Source: Alphaproteobacteria bacterium (GTDB taxonomy: Bacteria; Pseudomonadota; Alphaproteobacteria; CAAHEQ01; UBA3637). Taken from it: DNA of 64,000 nt. Every line of letters starts with the position of its first letter. Position 1 is the first letter of the stretch. Below, piece by piece: positions 9,442 through 54,986 of the stretch. Under the pieces are notes generated by a model that was not told the origin of the DNA, searched no databases, and saw only the letters and a program-made list of their open reading frames with translations. The stretch covers positions 42,916 through 106,915 of the forward strand of contig JAZQUH010000034.1 in the NCBI GenBank assembly GCA_045631185.1, written 5' to 3'. The translations under genes and the position numbers were made by a program.

Positions 9442-9469
9442 TTGATAAAGTGATAAAGTTTGCTAGTGT
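9442..9469 (+). promoter_or_regulatory. sigma70 promoter TTGATA-16-TAGTGT; family-specific promoter shared with the 23825 and 53020 copies
   Basis: cttgataaagtgataaagtttgctagtgtgggga versus cttgacaaaggcgataaagttcgctagtatgggga at the other two loci. Confidence 0.6.
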
Positions 9470-9503
9470 GGGGATAATTAATAAATAATAAAGGGAGATA
9501 AAA

Positions 9504-10070
9504 ATGCAAAATTTAAGAAAAACAAACGAAACAGGCCGTTCTATGCTTGAAATGTTGGGCGTTCTGGCTATCATTGGCGTTTTAAGTGTTGCTGGTGTTG
9601 CGTGGTTTCATCCAGGGCCAGGCTGGAATAATTCGGGGTATCTTTTACTAAAATATGAAGGTTGTGGATGGCCATATGATGGAAAACTTGGGACGGATAA
9701 AAAAACGTGTTGCAGTGTTGAGGGCTATGCTTGGAGGGATGCGTATGTTGGCTATAATGATGTAAAAACTCAAATTTGCGGATGTCCTATGCCTAATGAT
9801 GGTACTACACATGCACCGGTATTGGGAACTGACGGTAAAACGTGTTGCAGAGATGGATTGACTTGGTATGATGCTAATCGTAATTATACTGCTGCAAGTT
9901 TATATTGTGGTGGATGCCCAGAAGATGGAAAAGTAGGAAAAGACTCTAAAACCTGTTGTAAAGATGGAAAATATTGGCATGATTATGAGGTTGGTTATTT
10001 CTATGAAAGTGAAGTTTGCCAAGGAATATACCCCCCCCCGCCCAAATCGGACGGGGGATTTTTAATATAA
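9504..10070 (+). CDS. type-IV-pilin-like (class III signal) cysteine-rich repeat protein, short paralog
   Basis: N-terminus MQNLRKTNETG|RSMLEMLGVLAIIGVLSVAG with Gly(-1), Glu(+5) and a hydrophobic helix. Strong GGGAG RBS. Three ~42-aa Cys-rich repeats (CGCP..DG..G.D.KTCC.DG..W.D). C9 tract at 10031-10039. Confidence 0.7.
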   Translation: MQNLRKTNETGRSMLEMLGVLAIIGVLSVAGVAWFHPGPGWNNSGYLLLKYEGCGWPYDGKLGTDKKTCCSVEGYAWRDAYVGYNDVKTQICGCPMPNDGTTHAPVLGTDGKTCCRDGLTWYDANRNYTAASLYCGGCPEDGKVGKDSKTCCKDGKYWHDYEVGYFYESEVCQGIYPPPPKSDGGFLI

Positions 10071-12056: not shown

Positions 12057-12848
12057 ATGGTATCTAAAAAAACTCAGGAAATTGCTTTTAATAAGTTACG
12101 TCAAATGGCAAAAGATAATACTATTTGTTTTACATATTATGAACCTCCTTATTATGGTGTGGGCTGTGGACGAGATCGTTCAGTGGATTGGAATGGACCA
12201 CTTCTATTTTATAAAAAAGGGGAATCACGTGAAGAGATCTTTTTAAGAACCATGTGTTGTTTACTAGATGCTGATTTTCCAAGATTTTTAAAGCAAAAAG
12301 AAAATGAGAGAAAATTGGTTCATCTCCTTTTGGAAGCTGGATTGAATCCTAACATGAAATATAATGAAAAAAGTATTTTTTTACTCTTTGTTAAAAAGGG
12401 TAGAGTGGGTCCAGCACTGGAAATTGCCCAACATCCTGATTTTCGTTTTCCAAAAGGAGAGGAGGGGGCAGTTTTTGATAAACTTTCTTTCAATCTTAGT
12501 TCAAGTAGATGGCATCATCCTTGTTATAATTGGATTAATATAGAGCAGGATAGTCTTCCTGATTGGGCAAAGGATAGAAAAAAGCGTTTGCAAGAAAAAT
12601 TACCTGAGGCTATGAAATATCATAGAATTTGGCAGGAAGAGACAAAAGATTTAGCTTTTCTTCTATTTCAAAAAGGATTATATCCTTCAAATGAGAGATG
12701 CTTTGAAAAATTGGCTCCTGTCGTTTTAGAAAAAGATCCCGATTTTTTCAATAAAAAGAAAAAACAAGTAATATCCCAAATTCAACATGCCAAAACACCA
12801 ATTCAAATTTATAATGCCCTGATGGGAAAAAGAAAGGAGAAAAATTAA
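12057..12848 (+). CDS. ankyrin-like repeat hypothetical protein inserted between tig and clpP
   Basis: [29 protein letters not shown] resembles the ANK consensus. Confidence 0.4.
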
Positions 12849-13441
12849 TGAAAATTCAAGATACATTAGTGCCGACTGTTATTGAAACGACAGGTCGTGG
12901 GGAGCGTGCTTTTGATATTTATTCACGTTTGTTAAAAGAACGTATTGTTTTTTTGACCGGTGAAGTCAATGATGCGGTTTCCAGTTTGATTTGTGCTCAA
13001 TTATTGTTTTTGGAAGCCGAAAATCCCGATAAAGAAATTTCGTTTTATATCAATTCTCCCGGTGGTGTTGTGACCAGCGGTTTGGCTATCTTGGATACCA
13101 TGAATTATATCAAATGTCCCGTATCCACCGTGTGTATGGGCCAGGCCTGTTCAATGGGCTCATTGCTTTTGACCTGCGGTGAAAAAGGGCGCCGTTTTGC
13201 GTTGCCCAATGCCCGTGTGATGATTCATCAACCCAGTGGCGGTTTTCAGGGGCAGGCAACAGATATGGAAATCCATGTCAAAGAAATTTTGGCCATTAAA
13301 AAACGTTTGAATCAAATCTATGTGGAACAAACGGGTAAAACTTTAAAAGAAATTGAAACAGCGATGGAACGTGATAACTTTATGACAGCCGAAGAAGCCG
13401 TCAAGTTTGGTTTAATTGATGCCGTTGTATCCAAAAAATAA
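12848..13441 (+). CDS. clpP: ATP-dependent Clp protease proteolytic subunit
   Basis: Catalytic Ser motif [11 protein letters not shown] and His in MIHQPSGG. Confidence 0.95.
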
Positions 13442-13452
13442 GGGGTTTTTAT

Positions 13453-14709
13453 ATGACAGATGAAAATTTGATATGTTCTTTTTGTGGTAAAAACCAAAAG
13501 GAAGTGAAAAAATTGATTGCCGGGCGTTCGGATAAAGACGAGCAGGGGCAATCACATGCCGTTTATATTTGTGATGAATGCATCGGTTTGTGTCAGGATA
13601 TTTTAAAAGAGGAAGTCAAAAAGAATCCCCAGTTGGAATTGGATGGTTTGGGGGGTGATAAACCATTGAAAAAGCCCCATGAATTAAAGGCGTTCTTGGA
13701 TGAATACGTTATTGGTCAGGATGCCGCTAAGCGTGTTTTATCAGTTGCTGTATATAATCATTATAAACGCTTGAAGAACAAAGAAAAAGTGGAAGATGTT
13801 GAATTGGAAAAATCCAATATCTTGTTGTTGGGTGCCACCGGTTGCGGTAAAACTTTGTTGGCCCGTACATTGGCAAAAACATTGGATGTGCCTTTTGCTA
13901 TTGCTGATGCAACTACTTTGACCGAAGCCGGTTATGTGGGTGAAGATGTTGAAAATGTTGTTTTGAAACTTTTACAGGCCGCTAACTATGATGTTGCTAA
14001 GGCTGAACGTGGTATTATTTATATTGATGAAATTGATAAGATTGCCCGCAAAGCCGATGGTCCGTCTATTACTCGTGATGTATCGGGTGAAGGTGTGCAA
14101 CAGGCGTTGTTGAAGATGATAGAAGGAACTGAGGCCAGTTTGCCCCCGCAAGGTGGTCGTAAGCACCCCAACCAAGAATATATCAAAGTCAATACAGGTC
14201 ATATTTTGTTCATCTGCGGTGGTGCTTTTGACGGCTTGGATAAAGTTATTGCTTCACGTATGGCCGAATATTCGGTGGGATTTGGATCTGATGTTAAAAA
14301 CAAAGACAAATTGGATACCAACGAATTATTAAAGCAATTAGAACCGGATGATTTGTTAAAGTACGGATTGATTCCTGAATTTATCGGACGTTTGCCTGTC
14401 CATGTGGCTTTGCAGGCTTTGGATGAAAAAGCTTTGGTTGAAATTTTGACCAAGCCCAAAAACGCGTTGGTTAAACAATATAAGACTTTGTTTAAAATGG
14501 AAGGCGTTGATTTGAAATTTACAGATGGTGCTTACAGTGCGATTGCCCAAAAGGCCATGAAACGTAAAACAGGTGCCCGTGGACTTCGTTCTATTATGGA
14601 AGATTTGTTGATGGATTTGATGTACGATACACCATCTAAAAAAGATATCAAAGAAATCATCATTGATGAAGATGTGGTCAATGGCAAAGGTGAACCTAAG
14701 CAAAAATAA
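13453..14709 (+). CDS. clpX: ATP-dependent Clp protease ATP-binding subunit ClpX
   Basis: N-terminal C4 zinc finger CSFCGK...CDEC. Walker [12 protein letters not shown]-like loop. Confidence 0.95.
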
Positions 14710-14718
14710 GGATATTAC

Positions 14719-15105
14719 ATGGGTTTAAAAAATTGGTGGAGTAACAGAATAAAAGCGGATGTTAAAGCAGATGTGCGTTTTTTTTGGGAAGAATATCTTC
14801 AAAAAAATTATGCGCATGAGTATATGGATAGATGTATTCAAGCCCATAAAGATAGTAAAAAGCCGTTGAAACAACAATTTTTTCCACGAAAAGGTGAAGA
14901 TTTGCTTGCCAAAAAAGCGGCGTTTATTTCGGCTTATTCCAGACATGAAAAGGCATTCAGAGAAGAATATTTATCTTGGGGAAACAATGATTACAATCCT
15001 TTGGCATGTCAATATTCGGATGCTTTGGTTCAACGGGCTCGTTTAAATGGACATAAAAAATGGCAGATGATGATGCAAATAGCCCAAAAAAGAAAGACCA
15101 GATAG
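14719..15105 (+). CDS. hypothetical protein
   Basis: 128-aa ORF with AAGGA RBS. lon, which often follows clpX, is absent here. Confidence 0.35.
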   Translation: MGLKNWWSNRIKADVKADVRFFWEEYLQKNYAHEYMDRCIQAHKDSKKPLKQQFFPRKGEDLLAKKAAFISAYSRHEKAFREEYLSWGNNDYNPLACQYSDALVQRARLNGHKKWQMMMQIAQKRKTR

Positions 15106-15110
15106 TTTTT

Positions 15111-15139
15111 TCTTGACAACCCATTGAAAAAAGTTTAAA
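15111..15139 (+). promoter_or_regulatory. consensus-like sigma70 promoter (TTGACA-17-TAAAAT) for tRNA-Ala
   Basis: ttgacaacccattgaaaaaagtttaaaat. Confidence 0.5.
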
Positions 15140-15155
15140 ATGAAAAGGCTTTTGT

Positions 15156-15231
15156 GGGGATATAGCTCAGTTGGTAGAGCGACGCGTTCGCAATGCGTAG
15201 GCCAGCGGTTCGATCCCGCTTATCTCCACCA
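15156..15231 (+). tRNA. tRNA-Ala (anticodon CGC)
   Basis: Cloverleaf with acceptor GGGGATA/TATCTCC including the G3:U70 Ala identity pair. Anticodon loop TTCGCAA. T-arm AGCGG-TTCGATC-CCGCT. Encoded CCA. Confidence 0.8.
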
Positions 15232-15236
15232 AAAAA

Positions 15237-15266
15237 TACGACCTTTACAGGTCGTTTTTTTTATTT
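15237..15266 (+). terminator. rho-independent terminator (ACGACCT-TTAC-AGGTCGT + T8)
   Basis: Perfect 7-bp stem followed by a T-run. Confidence 0.65.
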
Positions 15267-15329
15267 ATACTATGGAAAAATGTTGTTTTTTGCTATAGAT
15301 TAAGTATAATCCTTAATGGAGAAAATTGA

Positions 15330-16595
15330 ATGAAAAAAAATTGGAAAACAGCATTGATGGCATCTGTGGCGGGTTTTGCTCTTATCGGTGGTTTTTGGGG
15401 TGATAATCAGGAAAAAGAACAAAAACTTGATGGGGCAACTTTGATGGAAGGAATTGTTAATATTTCCCAAACGGAAAATATAACAAATCGTAATATAATT
15501 GTTGATGCTTTCCTTCAAACATCAAAAACAATCACAGGAAGAAAATTATTAGAACAAATGTATGATTATTACGGTACGAATGACCATACAAGAATAAATG
15601 TGGCTATTGATGATATTGGCTTTCCTACCGGAGCATATGGTGCCAATAAGATAACTTTCAGTAAAGAATATCTTCCGGGCGGACTTTTAAAAATATTGGA
15701 TAGTACTGATATCAGGGTGACGGCAGCACATGAATTGTTACATGCACTTCAAGATCGGGAACGAGGTGTTAGTACTGATATTATAGGCAATACATATGAG
15801 GATGATTTCAAAGAGAATAAATTAATGGAAGCAGAAGCCAAAATACAAAATATTGTTATGGGCAATGAATTAAAAGATGATGCTTCATCTCTTTATCTGC
15901 TTTATAATTATATGACTAATAAATTAAATAATAAATTTTCCCAAGATAAAAGTGAAAGTATGGTAAAAACAGCACTTTTTCAATGTTTATGGCAAAATAA
16001 GACAATTGAAAATGTTGTTGCATCTTGTTTGGGTGAGAACATATCCTTAACAGATTTAAAAAATAATGGTATCAGTCTGGAATTGTGTAATAAAGAAATA
16101 AAAGAATGGCATAGTGTCTATAATAAACAAGCAATAAAAAAGGCTTATTCAAATGAACCTTTGCGTATTGATGATATCACCGGATTTACGCCCGAGAATG
16201 CAACACAAGAGCAACAAAAGGAAATTTATCAATCTTATCTTTCACGTTTGAATAAAAACGGGATAGTTGTTTCTATGGATGATATTCAAAACGGATTTAA
16301 GGTTGAATATCAAGAAAGAAAAGATTTTTCTTTTGAAGGAATTGTTACCATTAAGGATTCTCAGTCAGAGCATTGTTTTAAATCCTGTGATACACCAACC
16401 GAGATTAACACGGATAAAAAAGTGAAGAAAAAAGCTGGGCTTGGTGTTTTGGGTATATTATCACAAGGTTCACAAAAGGGTGCATCCTACAAAGAATCAG
16501 AAAATAAAACATCAGAAGCAAAAGTTGAGCAGGAAAAAAATAAAAAAGTTTCCGATTTGATTTTGTCTTCTATTAAAGGAAAAGAAAGACCTTAA
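15330..16595 (+). CDS. secreted putative zinc metalloprotease / effector-like protein (signal peptide, HExxH)
   Basis: N-terminal signal MKKNWKTALMASVAGFALIGGFWG. Zincin motif TAAHELLHALQD. Lys-rich C-terminal tail. Confidence 0.45.
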   Translation: MKKNWKTALMASVAGFALIGGFWGDNQEKEQKLDGATLMEGIVNISQTENITNRNIIVDAFLQTSKTITGRKLLEQMYDYYGTNDHTRINVAIDDIGFPTGAYGANKITFSKEYLPGGLLKILDSTDIRVTAAHELLHALQDRERGVSTDIIGNTYEDDFKENKLMEAEAKIQNIVMGNELKDDASSLYLLYNYMTNKLNNKFSQDKSESMVKTALFQCLWQNKTIENVVASCLGENISLTDLKNNGISLELCNKEIKEWHSVYNKQAIKKAYSNEPLRIDDITGFTPENATQEQQKEIYQSYLSRLNKNGIVVSMDDIQNGFKVEYQERKDFSFEGIVTIKDSQSEHCFKSCDTPTEINTDKKVKKKAGLGVLGILSQGSQKGASYKESENKTSEAKVEQEKNKKVSDLILSSIKGKERP

Positions 16596-16629
16596 TTTCA
16601 GGGAAATTAATAAAGATAAAGCAAAAGGA

Positions 16630-17178
16630 TTATCTTCGTTTGTTTTTATGCAAATAATTCAAAAGGATTTTGGGATTTTGTACCTGTCGCCCAATGTTTT
16701 TTTGTGGGTATTTTTGTCGAAATTCCGCCACTTTTGCCCGTTTGGCTTTTTGGCGTTCTGCCGTTGGTTTTTCTTGTTTGTCAATTAAATACAATTCTTT
16801 GTTCAATTCTTGACGTTCTTTTTGAGGAATCAGATGCTCTTTTTCCCAGTGTTTCAGGTATTTTTGTTCGTGACTATATGGTAAATCCGTTCCCATATAA
16901 TAAACCTTTTGAGAACTTAATAACCCAAACAAATTATATGATTCACTGGGGCCGTCTTTTAATCCGTTTTTATAATAACATTTTTTCCAAGGTTTGCCTG
17001 TGAATGCGTGAAAAGATTCGTATAATCCGTTCTTTTGATCGTCTTTATAAGTGCATTTTTCAAAGATACGACCATTTTTATGAAAGGATAAAAATGGGCC
17101 ATTCTTTTTTCCGTCTTTATCGATTGTGTAAATTGATTTTGTTTTGCCGTTACTGTGATATTCTATTGTTGCGTACAT
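16630..17178 (-). CDS. MORN-repeat protein (YwqK-like), second paralog
   Basis: Repeated KNGxxxxFHxNG/KNGLYESFH motifs. Confidence 0.5.
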   Translation of the reverse strand: MYATIEYHSNGKTKSIYTIDKDGKKNGPFLSFHKNGRIFEKCTYKDDQKNGLYESFHAFTGKPWKKCYYKNGLKDGPSESYNLFGLLSSQKVYYMGTDLPYSHEQKYLKHWEKEHLIPQKERQELNKELYLIDKQEKPTAERQKAKRAKVAEFRQKYPQKNIGRQVQNPKILLNYLHKNKRR

Positions 17179-17292
17179 TGATAATGCCTTTTAAAATAAA
17201 ACATAATTATACCACGAACAGCCCTTTTTGTCAATCTGTTCGACTGGCTTGTTATAAATCCAAAGAGAATATAAGGTTGTTTTTAAAAGAAA

Positions 17293-17318
17293 AAGCCCTC
17301 ATTTGGTTGAGGGCTTTA
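17293..17318. terminator. bidirectional terminator hairpin (AAGCCCTCA-TTTGGT-TGAGGGCTT)
   Basis: 9-bp perfect stem flanked by A/T runs, between convergent gene ends. Confidence 0.55.
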
Positions 17319-17325
17319 AAAAGAT

Positions 17326-17400
17326 GGTGCCTGGAGACGGAATCGGACCGCCGACACAGAGATTTTCAGTCTCTTGCTCTACCAACTGAGCTATCCAGGC
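17326..17400 (-). tRNA. tRNA-Phe (anticodon GAA)
   Basis: Reverse complement GCCTGGATAGCTCAGTTGGTAGAGC...ACTGAAAATC...GGTTCGATTCC...TCCAGGCACCA. Confidence 0.85.
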
Positions 17401-17524
17401 GAATAATAAACACATTTTAACCAACTTTGAATCAAAAGTCAAGCACTTTTTAATCAAAAAATATTTAATTATAAAAAATCTTTTAAAATGAAGTAGTTAT
17501 TTTTGATTTATTAAGTGATGCTTT

Positions 17525-17962
17525 TTAATAATTCATTCGTGGGGGCAGGTTGCGCAATCTGACCAAATATGGTTTCATGGGCTTATCACGGCTGATTAAA
17601 TGTCCCAAATACCACACGCTTAAAAAAGCCATAGCTTTTTGAGCGGCATCTAATTTTTGTCCCACTGTTTCGGCTGTTTCAAATTGTTGGCGAAATTGTG
17701 AAATGTTTTTGATAAACAGCTGATGGCTGGCAATATGTTCTTCCATTTCGGGATAACGAATGCGTTCCATAATGTCTTCTTCGTGTGAAAAATGGTTTCG
17801 AACATAATCATAACAGGCCTGAAACATTTTTTCCATACCTTCAATATGGCGCTCCTTGATATCATTTGAAGCCTGATTGATGACTTTTAAAAAAGCCTGA
17901 TGTTCGCTATCCAAAGGTGGATAGTTTAAGCTCATTTGTTCCCGCCAAGTTATCACTGCCAT
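17525..17962 (-). CDS. hemerythrin-like (HHE cation-binding) protein
   Basis: MAVITWREQMSLNYPPLDSEHQAFL...HFSHEEDIMERIRYPEMEEHIASHQ His/Glu-rich hemerythrin pattern. AGGGGGG RBS 5 nt upstream of ATG at 17962. The six-frame ORF up to 18142 overlaps ychF and is an artefact. Confidence 0.6.
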   Translation of the reverse strand: MAVITWREQMSLNYPPLDSEHQAFLKVINQASNDIKERHIEGMEKMFQACYDYVRNHFSHEEDIMERIRYPEMEEHIASHQLFIKNISQFRQQFETAETVGQKLDAAQKAMAFLSVWYLGHLISRDKPMKPYLVRLRNLPPRMNY

Positions 17963-17984
17963 TTTTCCCCCTTTTTTGTTTTTT

Positions 17985-19085
17985 TTAGTTGCTGAATAAA
18001 AAGTGCACAACATCCCCGTCTTGCATGGTATAGTTTTTGCCTTCCTGGCGCAATAATCCTTTTTCACGTGCGCCACTTTCACCTCTATGGGCGACATAGT
18101 CATTATAAGAAACAACTTCCGCCCGAATGAAACCTTTTTCAAAATCCGAATGGATAATACCGGCCGCCTGAGGTGCTAAGATGCCTTTACGCATGGTCCA
18201 GGCATGGGCTTCTTTGGGTCCGGAAGTAAAGAATGTTTCTAAACCCAATAATTTATAACCAGCCTTGATAATCCGATCCAAACCGGTTTCGGTTAAGCCA
18301 AGGGTTTCCAAAAATTCAGGTTGTTCTTCGGCGGGCAGTTGGGCAATTTCCTGTTCAATGCCGGCGCAAATCACAACAGATGAGTTGCCTTGTTTTTTTG
18401 CCATTTCGGCAACACGTTCAGAAAATTCATTGCCTGAGGCAGCCGAATTGTCATCCACGTTACACACATATAAAACAGGTTTTGCCGTCAATAAAGCCAA
18501 TTGATTAAATAATTTTAAATCTTCGGCATCGGTGGGTTTTGCCAATCGGGCAGGTTGACCATTACGCAATAATTCCAAAGCCGGCTCAATTACTTTTACC
18601 CAAGCTTTTGATTCTTTATCGCCTGTTTGGGCTTTTTTGGCCACACCATTCAAACGTTTTTCCAGGCTTTCCAAATCCGCCAACATCAATTCGGTTTCAA
18701 CCGTTTCGGCATCACGGATAGGATCTATGGAACCTTCCACATGGACAATATCCGAATTTTCAAAACAACGCAATACGTGAATGATGGCATCCACTTCACG
18801 AATGTTGCCCAAGAACTGATTGCCTAATCCTTCACCTTTGCTGGCACCTTTTACTAAACCGGCAATATCAACAAACTCCAACTGAGTTGGTACAATTTTG
18901 GCAGATTTATCAATTTCGGCCAAAACATTTAAACGTTCATCCGGGACGGCAACACGGCCGATATTCGGTTCAATGGTGCAAAACGGATAGTTGGCCGCCT
19001 GAGCATTGACCGTTGCGGTTAAAGCGTTAAATAAAGTTGATTTCCCGACGTTGGGTAATCCGACAATTCCACAGTTAAATCCCAT
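17985..19085 (-). CDS. ychF: ribosome-binding ATPase YchF
   Basis: MGFNCGIVGLPNVGKSTLFNAL. Obg-family G motifs. C-terminal TGS domain. Confidence 0.9.
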   Translation of the reverse strand: MGFNCGIVGLPNVGKSTLFNALTATVNAQAANYPFCTIEPNIGRVAVPDERLNVLAEIDKSAKIVPTQLEFVDIAGLVKGASKGEGLGNQFLGNIREVDAIIHVLRCFENSDIVHVEGSIDPIRDAETVETELMLADLESLEKRLNGVAKKAQTGDKESKAWVKVIEPALELLRNGQPARLAKPTDAEDLKLFNQLALLTAKPVLYVCNVDDNSAASGNEFSERVAEMAKKQGNSSVVICAGIEQEIAQLPAEEQPEFLETLGLTETGLDRIIKAGYKLLGLETFFTSGPKEAHAWTMRKGILAPQAAGIIHSDFEKGFIRAEVVSYNDYVAHRGESGAREKGLLRQEGKNYTMQDGDVVHFLFSN

Positions 19086-23753: not shown

Positions 23754-23824
23754 TTTAATCCTCCTTTTTTATTTTAAGATAAGCTTTTTTTATTTTTTAT
23801 CAAGTCTATTTTTTGTTTTTGCGC

Positions 23825-23853
23825 TTGACAAAGGCGATAAAGTTCGCTAGTAT
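23825..23853 (+). promoter_or_regulatory. near-consensus sigma70 promoter TTGACA-17-TAGTAT, identical to the copy at 53020
   Basis: ttgacaaaggcgataaagttcgctagtat. Identity with the 53020 locus runs on for about 780 bp downstream. Confidence 0.65.
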
Positions 23854-23887
23854 GGGGATAAATGAGCAAACAGGGAGACTCTAAAAA

Positions 23888-25297
23888 ATGATTTTAAACC
23901 ACGATAAAGGTATAAATAAAGGAACCTTGTACACACACACACACACATTTAATTTTGAAAAGATAAAATCCGCCGAAGGCGGACGTTCCATGTCCGAGAT
24001 GTTGGGGGTATTGGCCATCATTGGTGTATTAAGTGTATCGGGTATTGCGGGTTATCGCCACGGTATTACCAAACACCGTGCCAATATCACATTAAACGAT
24101 TCACGCATGGCGTATATGGAATCCAAAACACGCCCAAATGTGCCTGACCACGCATGGCATGATGTTTCGCATAACTTTGATTCAGGCAAAACATTCCAAA
24201 TGTTGCGTGATAAAAAGGGCAACAATTATGTCAAAGTCATGGAGGTTGATGAAAGGGTTTGTCGTCAGATTTTAAAAATGTCCGTATCGGGCAGGTTGTC
24301 ATTTTTAACCGAAAACGGGGAAAATAAAACCGATTGTAGCGAAGAAAATAATATCGTGATATCATGGGATGGTTTGGGCAAACCCAGCGATTGTGAAATA
24401 AAAGCCGATTGTGGTGAAAATTTTGCGGGTATTTGTACAAATCAAGGCCATTGTCGCTTATGTGATACGGCAACGGAACGGATGAATTCGGATGGCACGG
24501 CGTGCGAATGTGACCCCGAAAAAGCTGTATCATGCACAGATGGTGGCGAAAGCACATGGTGTTGTGGTGCCGGCCTTATCTGTGATAAAGAAAATCAAGG
24601 CTGTAAAGCGGGCACGGGCGGATGTCAATACAACTTTACGCAACAGGTTTATACCCGTTCGTCCAATTGTTCGTATATTATATCCACGCAAGAACAAACC
24701 CGTTCATCCAATTGCCATTACACGGTTCGTGATTATGTGATTGAAGGTTCTTTGCACGGTGTGGAAATGACGCAAATCCAAGGATGTCCATCGGGTGAAT
24801 ATTGTTTGCTCGGCTATTTTGATAATGAATGTACATCATCCATCAACCGTGGGGATGTGGGGGCATCGGGCGCCGAAGACGTTTATGGCGTTTGTTTAAA
24901 ACGCACCATGAACGGCGGTACATGTGACGTCAGCACGGTATCCACCGCCTTTATGGATGAAGTTCAAGGATGTCCATCGGATGAGTATTGTTTAATCAGC
25001 TATTTTGACGAAGAATGTACATCATCCATCAACCGTGGTGATGTGGGTGCAACGACGCCCGAGCAAGTTTATGGTGTTTGTTTAAAGCGCACCATGAATG
25101 GTGGCACATGTGATGTAGCCGAAATTGCCGAAGGCAGTTTAACCGAAGTGCAAGGTTGCCCCGCGGGTCAATATTGTTATTTAAAATGGCAAGGAAGCGA
25201 TTGTTCCACAGCCATCAATAAAGGCGATATAACTGGGCCGATGTTCGGTGCGTGTTTGGAACGCACATCCAACAATGCCCAATGCCCGATAAAATAA
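23888..25297 (+). CDS. type-IV-pilin-like Cys-rich modular surface protein, long paralog 1, with prepilin-type leader in frame
   Basis: Leader MILNHDKGINKGTLYTHTHTFNFEKIKSAEGG|RSMSEMLGVLAIIGVLSVSGIAG with Glu(+5) and a hydrophobic helix. GGGAG RBS. Conserved N-terminal globular and EGF-like Cys module. Three ~60-aa C-terminal repeats (QGCPSGEYCLLGYFDNECTSSINRGDVG...VCLKRTMNGGTCDV). Confidence 0.7.
   Translation: MILNHDKGINKGTLYTHTHTFNFEKIKSAEGGRSMSEMLGVLAIIGVLSVSGIAGYRHGITKHRANITLNDSRMAYMESKTRPNVPDHAWHDVSHNFDSGKTFQMLRDKKGNNYVKVMEVDERVCRQILKMSVSGRLSFLTENGENKTDCSEENNIVISWDGLGKPSDCEIKADCGENFAGICTNQGHCRLCDTATERMNSDGTACECDPEKAVSCTDGGESTWCCGAGLICDKENQGCKAGTGGCQYNFTQQVYTRSSNCSYIISTQEQTRSSNCHYTVRDYVIEGSLHGVEMTQIQGCPSGEYCLLGYFDNECTSSINRGDVGASGAEDVYGVCLKRTMNGGTCDVSTVSTAFMDEVQGCPSDEYCLISYFDEECTSSINRGDVGATTPEQVYGVCLKRTMNGGTCDVAEIAEGSLTEVQGCPAGQYCYLKWQGSDCSTAINKGDITGPMFGACLERTSNNAQCPIK
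23931..23947 (+). repeat. (CA)8 dinucleotide tract (17 nt) inside the leader-encoding 5' region of the pilin-like gene
   Basis: acacacacacacacaca. The paralog at 53126-53138 has a 13-nt tract. The 4-nt difference changes the reading frame relative to the upstream ATG. Confidence 0.9.
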
Positions 25298-25364: not shown

Positions 25365-25826
25365 ATGAAACAATCAACAAAAACATTATCCATTATCTTT
25401 GCCATCACATTGGGGGTTAGCACATCAACCATGGCCTATACATCCTGTGTGGGTGGAACGGAAATCACGGCCAATGCCCACACGGATGCGGATGCCCCCG
25501 ATACATGCACCGCGGATCATTGCCCCAGCCCCGCCAAAAGCTTTTGTATCAGCAATGTGAAATTGAATTGGTGGAGTGCCTTTAATTGGTGTCAAAGCAA
25601 TGGTGGCACTTTGGCTGCATTTAATTCTGCTTGTCCCAATACACCGGTGCGTAGCAATAATACGGCGGGGGCTTGTCCCGCTTTACAAGGTGTTGGTGAG
25701 AGTAAATACTATTGGACATCCATGGGATCGGGAACAAGCGCCGCCCTCCTCGTGAATCTTTCCTCCGGTGCTGTCTACTTCGACGTCCGCAATTACGCCA
25801 GCGCCATCTACGCCCTGTGTGAGTAA
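25365..25826 (+). CDS. small secreted C-type-lectin-like (CTLD-like) protein, partner of pilin-like paralog 1
   Basis: Signal peptide. KLNWWSAFNWCQSNGGTLAAFNS resembles the CTLD W.eA..yC...Gg.Las motif. C-terminal ...AIYALCE resembles the CTLD ...fiCE end. AAAGGAG RBS. Paralog at 54591. Confidence 0.45.
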   Translation: MKQSTKTLSIIFAITLGVSTSTMAYTSCVGGTEITANAHTDADAPDTCTADHCPSPAKSFCISNVKLNWWSAFNWCQSNGGTLAAFNSACPNTPVRSNNTAGACPALQGVGESKYYWTSMGSGTSAALLVNLSSGAVYFDVRNYASAIYALCE

Positions 25827-53019: not shown

Positions 53020-53048
53020 TTGACAAAGGCGATAAAGTTCGCTAGTAT
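53020..53048 (+). promoter_or_regulatory. near-consensus sigma70 promoter TTGACA-17-TAGTAT (copy of 23825-23853)
   Basis: Identical 29-nt promoter. Identity with the 23824 locus starts exactly at cTTGACA. Confidence 0.65.
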
Positions 53049-53125
53049 GGGGATAAATGAGCAAACAGGGAGACTCTAAAAAATGATTTTAAACCACGAT
53101 AAAGGTATAAATAAAGGAACCTTGT

Positions 53126-53138
53126 ACACACACACACA
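53126..53138 (+). repeat. (CA)6 dinucleotide tract (13 nt), two units shorter than at 23931
   Basis: gtACACACACACACAttt. Puts the upstream RBS-served ATG (53083) out of frame with the pilin-like ORF. That frame stops at 53155-53157 after 24 codons. Confidence 0.9.
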
Positions 53139-53180
53139 TTTAATTTTGAAAAGATAAAATCCGCCGAAGGCGGACGTTCC

Positions 53181-54575
53181 ATGTCCGAGATGTTGGGCGT
53201 ATTGGCCATCATTGGTGTATTAAGTGTATCGGGTGTTGCGGGTTATCGCCATGGTATTACCAAACACCGTGCCAATGTTACATTAAACGATTCACGCATG
53301 GCGTATATGGAATCCAAAACACGCCCAAATGTGCCTGACCACGCATGGCACGATATTTCGCATAACTTTGATTCGGGTAAATCATTCCAAATGTTGCGTG
53401 ATAAAAAGGGCAACGATTACGTTAAAGTCATGGAGGTTGATGAAAGGGTTTGTCGTCAGATTTTAAAAATGTCCGTATCGGGCAGGTTGTCATTTTTAAC
53501 CGAAAACGGTGAAAATAAAACCGATTGTAGTGAAGAAAATAATATCGTGATATCATGGGATGGCTTGGGCAAACCCAGCGATTGTGAAATAAAAGCCGAT
53601 TGTGGTGAAAATTTTGCGGGTATTTGTACAAATCAAGGTCATTGTCGCTTATGTGATACGGCAACGGAACGGATGAATTCGGATGGCACAGCGTGTGAAT
53701 GTGACCCCGAAAAAGCGGTATCATGCACGGATGGTGGCGAAAGCACATGGTGTTGTGGTGCCGGTCTTATCTGTGATACAGAAAACAAAGGCTGTAAAGC
53801 GGGCGATGGAAAATGTACCTATTATTTTAACGAATCGGATGAAACATCAGAATACACCACCGATTGCAGTTATACCCTATCCGATGAAAGCAATGTTGAA
53901 TATTACTATTCAAATTGTTATTATACCATTGGATCAACACCGTCGATGACCAGTCAGGTTATCGGTAATACCACGCAATCATTATCACATCCGAATATAG
54001 GTTCTTCGACCCCCCGTGGCGGATGCCCCCCGAATCAATATTGTACATTGTTGTGGACGGGAACCCCCATTGAAACCCAGGGAAACAACTATATTTTTGC
54101 ATCCAAACCCACATCGGCATCGGCGGGAATGACGGGTATTTTATATGGCAAATGTCAAACATTATCGGGTAATGATTCAACGCCATTGACGGAAAACAAA
54201 AACGGATCGGGTCAAATGGTGGGCAATGGCGCCCGTGGCGGATGTCCGGAAAATCAATATTGTTTATTGATGTGGAAACAACAATCATGGACGGGAACCG
54301 GCGAACCCAAACTTACCGCATCGGATACGGGTGAAATGTATGGTAAATGCCAAATGTTATCCGGCAATGATGCCACCCCAAAAATTGCCGAAGGATCAAC
54401 ATTTACACGGTATAGGGTGGGGCAAGGATGCCCGATTGGGCAATATTGCCGTTTATTGTGGAAAAATGAAAGTTGTACAAATCTGACGGCTTCGGATATG
54501 GGTGGGTTATCGGGTGTTTGTTTATCCATGTCCGGCCCAACGCCGGGTACGATTGATTGCCCTTATAAACAATAA
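53181..54575 (+). CDS. type-IV-pilin-like Cys-rich modular surface protein, long paralog 2, with leader region out of frame (phase-OFF or 5'-truncated)
   Basis: First 205 aa about 95% identical to paralog 1. C-terminal module replaced by three different repeats (GGCPxNQYC.L.W...YGKCQ.LSGND). The in-frame sequence upstream of ATG 53181 reads ..EGGRSM but reaches a stop at 53112-53114 with no start codon. Confidence 0.65.
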   Translation: MSEMLGVLAIIGVLSVSGVAGYRHGITKHRANVTLNDSRMAYMESKTRPNVPDHAWHDISHNFDSGKSFQMLRDKKGNDYVKVMEVDERVCRQILKMSVSGRLSFLTENGENKTDCSEENNIVISWDGLGKPSDCEIKADCGENFAGICTNQGHCRLCDTATERMNSDGTACECDPEKAVSCTDGGESTWCCGAGLICDTENKGCKAGDGKCTYYFNESDETSEYTTDCSYTLSDESNVEYYYSNCYYTIGSTPSMTSQVIGNTTQSLSHPNIGSSTPRGGCPPNQYCTLLWTGTPIETQGNNYIFASKPTSASAGMTGILYGKCQTLSGNDSTPLTENKNGSGQMVGNGARGGCPENQYCLLMWKQQSWTGTGEPKLTASDTGEMYGKCQMLSGNDATPKIAEGSTFTRYRVGQGCPIGQYCRLLWKNESCTNLTASDMGGLSGVCLSMSGPTPGTIDCPYKQ

Positions 54576-54590: not shown

Positions 54591-54986
54591 ATGAAAAAAA
54601 ATTTAATGATTTTATCTGTGCTTGTTTTGGTTATGTCCACGCCGGCGTTGTCGGCGACTTGTGCCAACGGTGCGGGAACGCAGGTGATAGGTGTGGATGG
54701 CGAAACATATTGTCGTTCCAATGTGAATATGAATTGGTGGAGTGCGTATGCATGGTGTGATGCCGCCAATATGACATTGGTTTCATTGGACAGATGTAAT
54801 GGTAAAAATGGCAATATTACGGGGGAAGTTGCCTGTCCCAATTTTAAAGGGACGGGGGGCTCTGTGACTTGCTGGACATCTTCTGTGCCAAACAGCTCTT
54901 TCGCCTTCAACGTGAATCTTTCTTCCGGTGCTGTTTTCAACAGCCACACCCGTAACTACTACAGCCTCTACGCCCTCTGTGAGTAG
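54591..54986 (+). CDS. small secreted C-type-lectin-like protein, partner of pilin-like paralog 2
   Basis: Signal peptide. NMNWWSAYAWCDAANMTLVSL CTLD-like motif. C-terminus ...SLYALCE. 15-nt gap after the upstream gene with AAAGGAAA RBS. Confidence 0.45.
   Translation: MKKNLMILSVLVLVMSTPALSATCANGAGTQVIGVDGETYCRSNVNMNWWSAYAWCDAANMTLVSLDRCNGKNGNITGEVACPNFKGTGGSVTCWTSSVPNSSFAFNVNLSSGAVFNSHTRNYYSLYALCE

Follow-up and report, generated by a model that had tools for sequence, protein, structure and literature searches.

Does the length of a short dinucleotide tract decide whether a pilin-like gene is read? This question is raised by two genes of the window, by which is meant the whole 64-kb stretch (64,000 nucleotides) analysed here from contig JAZQUH010000034.1 of an uncultured alphaproteobacterium. 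Copy A, at 23888, and its paralog copy B, at 53083, encode long pilin-like proteins, and both have a (CA)n tract shortly after the same first ATG. The first-pass annotation of this DNA had described the tract as a slipped-strand switch in the leader-coding region, in frame in copy A (ON) and out of frame in copy B (OFF). We regard this reading, (CA)n as an on/off frame switch of the pilin-like genes, as probable. What was observed in its favour is the tract itself with its reading frames, the variation in length among loci that are otherwise nearly identical, OFF alleles that are intact, and the conservation of the cassette in which the tract is embedded.

Copies A and B share their complete 5' region. 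The -35 box (CTTGACA at 23824 and 53019) is precisely where the alignment of the two loci starts, and the 161 nt running from this box (23825 / 53020) up to the last base preceding the internal Met (23990 / 53181) show no difference other than a 4-nt indel in the tract. The promoter, the GGGAG ribosome-binding site (RBS), and the first ATG are hence common to both genes, as had been noted. The next 600 nt of the coding sequence (CDS) differ at 23 sites (3.8%), 16 of them synonymous and 7 non-synonymous, and at this adjoining divergence the probability of finding no difference in the 161 upstream nucleotides is ~0.002. Both tracts are perfect, uninterrupted, and located 43 nt past the first ATG, with the positions and the lengths of 17 and 13 nt reported at first (Table 1).

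Translation of copy A from the ATG at 23888 yields 469 codons in frame (MILNHDKGINKGTLYTHTHTFNFEKIKSAEGG/RSMSEMLGVLAIIGVLSV..., the slash marking the predicted cleavage site). The leader ends in ...KSAEGG/RSMSEMLGVLAIIGVLSVSGIAGY, and the 32-residue leader with Gly(-1) and Glu(+5) (...EGG/RSMSEM) can be read directly from the open reading frame (ORF), as annotated. In copy B, the same ATG runs into a stop after 24 codons, and a scan that included GTG and TTG besides ATG found no start codon for the long ORF upstream of 53181. Adding 4 nt (two CA units) to the copy B tract in a simulation produces a 498-residue ORF; the 4-nt difference alone thus decides the frame between the two copies, which agrees with the annotation. 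The tracts are not a matter of chance, because they are the sole dinucleotide tracts of at least five units in the 64-kb window, and because, in 226 kb of related loci, 38 of the 38 such tracts fall within this module.

Table 1. Coordinates of the pilin-like genes, their upstream elements, and their small partner genes in the window.
Feature	Position	Strand	Remarks
Copy A promoter	23825..23853	+	TTGACA, 17-nt spacer, TAGTAT, then GGGGATAA; 10/12 match; kept in all related loci
Copy B promoter	53020..53048	+	Same as that of copy A
Copy A Shine-Dalgarno (SD) sequence and first ATG	23873..23890	+	GGGAG; ATG at 23888
Copy A (CA) tract	23931..23947	+	ACACACACACACACACA; 17 nt; in frame (ON); encodes ..YTHTHT.. 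of the leader
Copy B (CA) tract	53126..53138	+	ACACACACACACA; 13 nt; out of frame (OFF)
Copy B upstream ORF	53083..53157	+	ATG as in copy A; 24 codons; TAA at 53155-53157 (OFF)
Copy A pilin-like gene	23888..25297	+	469 aa: 32-aa leader, G/RSMSEMLGVLAIIGVLSV helix, pilin-like head, Cys-rich C-terminal repeats
Copy B pilin-like gene	53181..54575	+	464 aa; open from the internal Met only
Copy A hairpin	23969..23983	+	TCCGCC-GAA-GGCGGA, just 5' of the internal Met; 3' arm holds the SD-like GAAGGCGG and the Gly(-1) codon
Copy B hairpin	53160..53174	+	As in copy A
Short third pilin-like paralog	9442..10070	+	CDS 9504-10070; 188 aa; homologous promoter and RBS; 11-aa leader MQNLRKTNETG/RSMLEM; no CA tract
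Small secreted partner gene of copy A	25365..25826	+	3' of copy A
Small secreted partner gene of copy B	54591..54986	+	3' of copy B; same gene pair in L003/L004

The importance of the upstream ATG comes from the rest of the family. The N-terminus G/RSM-x-EMLGVLAIIGVLSV is common to A, B, and the short third paralog of the window (9504-10070), and this paralog, together with ~20 paralogs of a related metagenome-assembled genome (MAG), possesses an ordinary short leader ending in ...G/RSM.EMLGVLAI. A leader with Gly(-1) and Glu(+5) is therefore the family norm, and genes in which the tract-bearing frame is joined to the pilin frame (hereafter "fused" genes) can obtain one only from the upstream ATG. 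Copy A displays the features of a class III signal: a charged leader, Gly(-1), Glu(+5), and ~20 hydrophobic residues. A database search returned 70 relatives (E <= 0.001), of which the close ones are nearly all metagenomic, with few from NCBI records. Most of these 70 have a short leader ending in Gly; 11 distant ones bear names given by the Joint Genome Institute (JGI), namely PulG pseudopilin and PilE. In the most distant relatives, the match is limited to the N-terminal helix, and the Pfam domains found are Bundlin and PilS_N.

A census of CA tract lengths in related genomes, which the first-pass annotation had proposed as a check, revealed whole-unit differences at loci with identical flanks, as expected of a slipped-strand switch. 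At the P0016-type locus, the tract is 19 nt long in contig L001 (in frame) and 15 nt in L052 (out), the flanks of these two being identical; it is 17 nt in L005 and L006 (out) and 13 nt in L007 (in), L005 and L007 again having identical flanks. The window-type leader has 17 nt in copy A and L053 (in), 15 nt in L051 (out), and 13 nt in copy B (out). A third leader variant, with one extra base past the tract, has 11 nt in L003, L004, L049, and L050 (out) and 19 nt in L008 (in). The fused genes thus show five tract lengths (11, 13, 15, 17, and 19 nt) across different metagenomes, always differing by whole CA units (2-nt steps). Certain alleles turned up in more than one independent sample, the 11-nt length being shared by four contigs and the 17-nt length by L005 and L006.

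Each OFF allele is otherwise free of lesions: one or two extra CA units (2 or 4 nt, simulated) restore an ORF of 431-498 residues. In the in-frame state, the leader is devoid of stop codons in all three diverged leader variants. In protein clusters at >=90% identity, some N-termini read YTHTHTQ and others YTHTQ, and further members were called from the internal Met, which is just what slippage in the tract predicts. Homologs with as little as 31% protein identity still have the tract at the same position of the leader (..ACC TTG TAC ACA CAC..), the P0016 leader being MRLNHDKGQNTATLYTHTHTQVIPEK..EGG/RSMTEM, and a single case of an interrupted tract was encountered (P0010 / L002). Furthermore, an alignment of 29 cassette copies (13 of them fused, the other 16 not) shows no variation in the GGAG or the ATG. 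At the level of sequence comparison, this census pattern supports a contingency locus with a hypermutable tract.

The reach of the tract beyond the window was followed by scanning for the promoter pattern in one genome per species. The MAG "Alphaproteobacteria bacterium SIG60" (SUVA01) yielded ~25 copies, and a second MAG a single one (L015); six further matches were due to chance. Each true copy comprises the promoter, the GGAG, the ATG, ~14 leader codons, and the CA tract. In SIG60, nineteen copies have a tract of 17 nt, two have 11 nt, another two 19 nt, and a single copy 15 nt; L013 is cut off before the tract. The copy of the second MAG has 21 nt. A scan of JGI metagenomes with the pattern TGGGGATAAN{58,72}TTGTACACACA gave 8 matches, all of them by chance and without the module. 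Judging from this arrangement, (CA)n belongs to a portable cassette, of which the window genes would be the fused version.

Only three SIG60 copies are fused to a pilin gene (L018, L023, and L026). In the remaining copies, a 25-codon upstream ORF (uORF; MCLNHGKGINKETLYTHTHTFNFEY followed by a stop) starts at this ATG and is separate from the pilin gene. After the TAA of the uORF come hairpin 1 (GTTGTGC-N4-GCACAAC), hairpin 2 (CCCACTGTAT-N5-ATACAGTGGG with a T-rich tail and a terminator-like score), in some copies hairpin inserts resembling miniature inverted-repeat transposable elements (MITEs), a strong RBS, and finally the pilin gene with a leader of its own (MSVKNKTNKNYKRSQKG/RSMVEM). The stems of both hairpins are invariant or compensated and their loops are variable, and the unfused leader folds far better than shuffled sequence (z = -4.8). 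Tracts of 11 or 17 nt bring the uORF to a stop at hairpin 1, and tracts of 15 or 21 nt right past the tract. With 13 or 19 nt, the uORF extends across hairpins 1 and 2, its stop codon lying 19-20 nt upstream of the pilin ATG in long leaders and 35-47 nt upstream in short ones. The read-through frame is open in the long leaders with P ~0.006-0.03, a value that is suggestive only, the copies being non-independent paralogs.

The MITE-like palindromic inserts (GTCATTCC...GGGGAATGAC, TCTCGGACTTGATCCGAGA, and CTTCGTGCTTGACACGAAG) are stacked between hairpin 2 and the pilin RBS in six SIG60 copies (L010, L012, L014, L019, L021, and L030). The fused leader L018 also carries one, and all of them leave the read-through frame open. 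In two places (L015 at 3807, minus strand, and L031 at 5939, plus strand), the cassette with its hairpins heads a non-pilin gene of 96 residues starting with MALAFITTKQTAEFRKRHG..., and the cassette is thus not restricted to the pilin-like family.

Attenuation under the control of a leader peptide was considered for the unfused copies: a uORF, conserved hairpins, a terminator-like hairpin 2, and an open read-through frame are present, and no antiterminator was identified. A wider reading, which we put forward tentatively, would make (CA)n the core of a phase-variable cassette whose commonest form switches the frame of a uORF. In two of the three frames, the uORF would end ahead of or at the hairpin pair, one member of which would be an intrinsic terminator; in the third, translation would cross both and stop ~20 nt before the pilin RBS. 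The outcome would be translation-coupled antitermination, or coupling, governed by slipped-strand events; at least 25 paralogs in one small genome would be under such control, and the fused window genes would be a simplified derivative.

In the fused genes, a smaller hairpin precedes the internal Met (Table 1). Among 12 distinct sequences, 97% of cells are paired, and two of the six pairs differ in both bases from one leader lineage to another (UA/GC and GC/AU). This hairpin contains an SD-like GAAGGYGG. The fold of the whole fused-leader RNA has z = -0.32, indicating that the fused leader is not globally structured and that the small hairpin alone is supported. In the whole window, Rfam at the gathering threshold recognises six tRNAs only, and none of its RNA families matches the leader.

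On the minus strand (23968-23984), the leader hairpin together with TTTATCTTTT scores as an intrinsic terminator, which is probably incidental. Minus-strand termination was rejected as the function of the hairpin for two reasons: at copy B, there is no gene on the minus strand that would need insulation, and the covariation of the stem follows the coding orientation in both contexts. The idea that the tract might influence the promoter was rejected as well, because the tract lies ~75-95 nt 3' of the -10 box and not between the hexamers. As there is neither a homopolymer nor a slippery heptamer, programmed frameshifting and transcriptional slippage at (CA)n were set aside.

In the mechanism proposed for the fused genes, (CA)n would be a hypermutable repeat in the 5' coding part of a cassette made of a sigma-70 promoter, a GGAG RBS, an ATG, and ~14 leader codons. 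In the window genes, the frame of this cassette would be fused, via a short linker and the small hairpin, to a Gly(-1)/Arg-Ser-Met-x-Glu(+5) site and a type-IVb-like pilin domain. Slipped-strand mispairing at replication would add or remove CA units. With a tract of 11, 17, or 23 nt, translation from the first ATG would read through and yield a pre-protein with a 30-34-residue type-IVb-style leader, the ON state of copy A. With any other length, the ribosome would stop 23-45 nt upstream of the internal Met, the OFF state of copy B; the hairpin holding the SD-like GAAGGYGG would then stay intact and probably mask it, keeping internal initiation low. That the upstream ATG is used, that the leader is cleaved, that switching is frequent within a clone, and that the hairpin plays this part are what we infer from the sequences. 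As the paralogs would switch independently, a population is proposed to show changing combinations of variable Cys-rich surface proteins.

Several observations weigh against this mechanism. The spacing between the SD and the upstream start is 9-10 nt, compared with ~6 nt in neighbouring genes. The total lack of leader substitutions between A and B points to a nucleotide-level constraint or gene conversion rather than to a plain coding constraint. The internal Met has its own SD-like GAAGGCGG 7 nt upstream, and a leaderless product is therefore conceivable. In SIG60, the cassette is mostly a separate uORF and hence not intrinsically a pilin leader. Arg at position +1 of A and B is atypical for prepilin sites, and neither protein matched TIGR02532 (IV_pilin_GFxxxE) or the Pfam family N_methyl at E<=1; the short paralog reaches 10.6 bits and the relatives 14-15 bits with TIGR02532, against a cut-off of 16.3, and matches to NCBIfam are sub-threshold only. 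Because the curated models are not reached and Arg(+1) is atypical, these proteins are called pilin-like (type IVb-like) and not certified pilins. No prepilin peptidase (A24) and no assembly gene of a pilus or type II secretion system (T2SS) occurs among the 10 window ORFs scanned. Besides, ~6-7 of the 18 fused alleles are in frame, i.e., the one-third that neutral frame drift would give. Finally, all tract lengths are assembly consensus values, not read-level or single-clone data, and for this reason the contingency pattern does not amount to proof of switching within a clone. With the caveats of consensus lengths, an ON fraction of about one-third, and a predicted rather than observed use of the upstream ATG, the slipped-strand reading given at the outset is nevertheless supported by the census and the intact OFF alleles.

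Some of these points feed an alternative that we judge unlikely, in which the tract is regulatory and lies outside the pilin CDS. The upstream ATG would open a uORF in every paralog, A and B would start or reinitiate at the internal Met, and the tract length would set the position of the uORF stop relative to a hairpin, with masking of the SD or, in unfused genes, termination as the outcome. The ~20 unfused SIG60 copies, with their 25-codon uORF and its TAA just before hairpin 1, argue for it, as do the conserved hairpins with their variable loops and compensatory pair, the terminator score of hairpin 2, and the 13/19-nt frame that crosses both hairpins to stop shortly before the pilin ATG. 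The SD-like GAAGGYGG inside a conserved hairpin, at 7 nt from the internal Met, and the ON fraction of one-third fit it too. However, a start at Met(+3) would lose the Gly(-1) leader that is found in every unfused paralog. Fused genes, moreover, keep an in-frame GGN-CGT-TCN (G-R-S) directly upstream of this Met, including a synonymous TCC/TCA change, and their leader, when in frame, is free of stop codons in three diverged variants.

A quite improbable alternative dispenses with any adaptive switch, copy B and the other OFF alleles being frameshift pseudogenes or repeat assembly errors and the tract persisting through recombinational copying of the cassette: consensus lengths (with a SIG60 coverage of only ~3.5x), the nineteen SIG60 copies of 17 nt, or 20 of the 25 cassette copies scored in the genome scan (a count that takes in the unscored L013 and L015 of the second MAG), a uniformity that could reflect homogenisation, and a cassette more conserved than the adjoining CDS would suit it, but length changes are always multiples of 2 nt, identical alleles recur across independent samples, OFF alleles lack any other lesion, copy B shows 16 synonymous versus 7 non-synonymous changes, and uninterrupted tracts persist in homologs to 31% identity with the one interruption in L002.

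Regarding the proteins themselves, A and B are mosaic: the first ~620 nt of their CDS are 96% identical and are followed by Cys-rich C-terminal halves of two different types. Metagenomic relatives, e.g., P0012 and P0003, pair N-terminal and C-terminal types in other ways. This mosaicism suggests, from sequence, segmental recombination within the pilin-like family. A search of Pfam with A, B, and the small partner genes gave nothing above the cut-off, a sequence search of the PDB returned noise only, and Foldseek found no significant match in the PDB. The short paralog holds a run of nine C at 10031-10039, at its 3' end, encoding PPPP; it is the sole G/C homopolymer of at least nine in the window (37% GC) and could be a second slippage-prone tract.

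The small secreted partner proteins (25365-25826 and 54591-54986) show a weak, sub-threshold match to C-type lectins, and the ~25 codons at the end of their genes are hypervariable and enriched in AAC and TAC. In contig L053 (1553-2731), the orthologous partner gene is followed immediately by a gene for a reverse transcriptase (PF00078). These sequence features suggest that the partner genes are the target of a diversity-generating retroelement (DGR). A search of the window revealed no DGR template repeat for them. The remaining window genes are housekeeping in appearance. The gene order ClpP-ClpX-128aa ... hemerythrin/YchF is common to window positions 12848-19085 and contig L005. In the latter, a CA-tract pilin-like gene (P0099) fills the slot occupied in the window by a tRNA (15156-15228) and an unrelated gene of 421 residues (15330-16595), which indicates that family members are gained or lost at fixed chromosomal slots.

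Taken together, an uncultured lineage of small-genome, low-GC alphaproteobacteria, represented by metagenomes only, appears to run a large mosaic family of Cys-rich pilin-like proteins from one CA-tract cassette. Such a surface family would imply strong fluctuating selection on the surface, by host, phage, or predator, and tract length offers a ready marker of population dynamics in existing metagenomic reads. Should the unfused version work by uORF read-through of a terminator, it would represent a new wiring of a mutational switch to expression.

Contingency loci based on simple sequence repeats (SSRs) are textbook knowledge in a few host-adapted pathogens, namely Neisseria, Haemophilus, Helicobacter, Campylobacter, and Mycoplasma; in the literature searched, no description of SSR phase variation was found for Alphaproteobacteria. 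Neisseria opa genes carry CTCTT repeats in the region coding for the leader peptide, and pilC a poly-G in its signal-peptide region. As in opa and pilC, the paralogs described here each have their own SSR in the leader-coding region, which would allow independent switching, and a conserved 5' region is followed by variable, mosaic exposed parts. The repeat is a pentamer or a homopolymer there and a dinucleotide here, and the protein class differs; we know of no uORF or terminator version of opa or pilC. Unlike the type IVb pilins CofA, TcpA, BfpA, and PilS, copies A and B have Arg(+1), fall below the TIGR02532 and Pfam thresholds, carry a large Cys-rich C-terminal extension with GCPxGQYC repeats, and have no assembly genes nearby.

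In Haemophilus influenzae, an SSR of the 5' untranslated region (UTR) is reported to act through an RNA element and RNase III processing (PMC12721329). The SSR of the unfused cassette, likewise upstream of the regulated ORF, may also act via the structure of the 5' leader RNA; in contrast to the RNase III processing of a UTR element, the suspected parts here are a translated uORF and a terminator-like hairpin.

A close parallel is found in Helicobacter pylori, in which oipA harbors dinucleotide (CT) repeats in the region coding for its signal peptide, with many repeat-number alleles among strains (PMC10564699). Like the Hop genes (oipA/hopH, sabA, and babB, among others), the window genes form part of a multigene family in which a dinucleotide SSR lies within the 5' segment coding for the leader of a surface protein or adhesin, and a change of units shifts the frame. 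They differ in having CA instead of CT, a prepilin-like (Gly-1/Glu+5) leader instead of a Sec signal peptide, and a pilin-like Cys-rich protein instead of a β-barrel outer membrane protein, in an uncultured alphaproteobacterium, with the tract located in a promoter-uORF cassette that the genes have in common and that frequently occurs unfused. By this analogy, the switch mechanism proposed for the window matches one already known from oipA and the other Hop genes of H. pylori, while the host lineage, the CA unit, the prepilin-like leader, the protein family, and the shared cassette set it apart.

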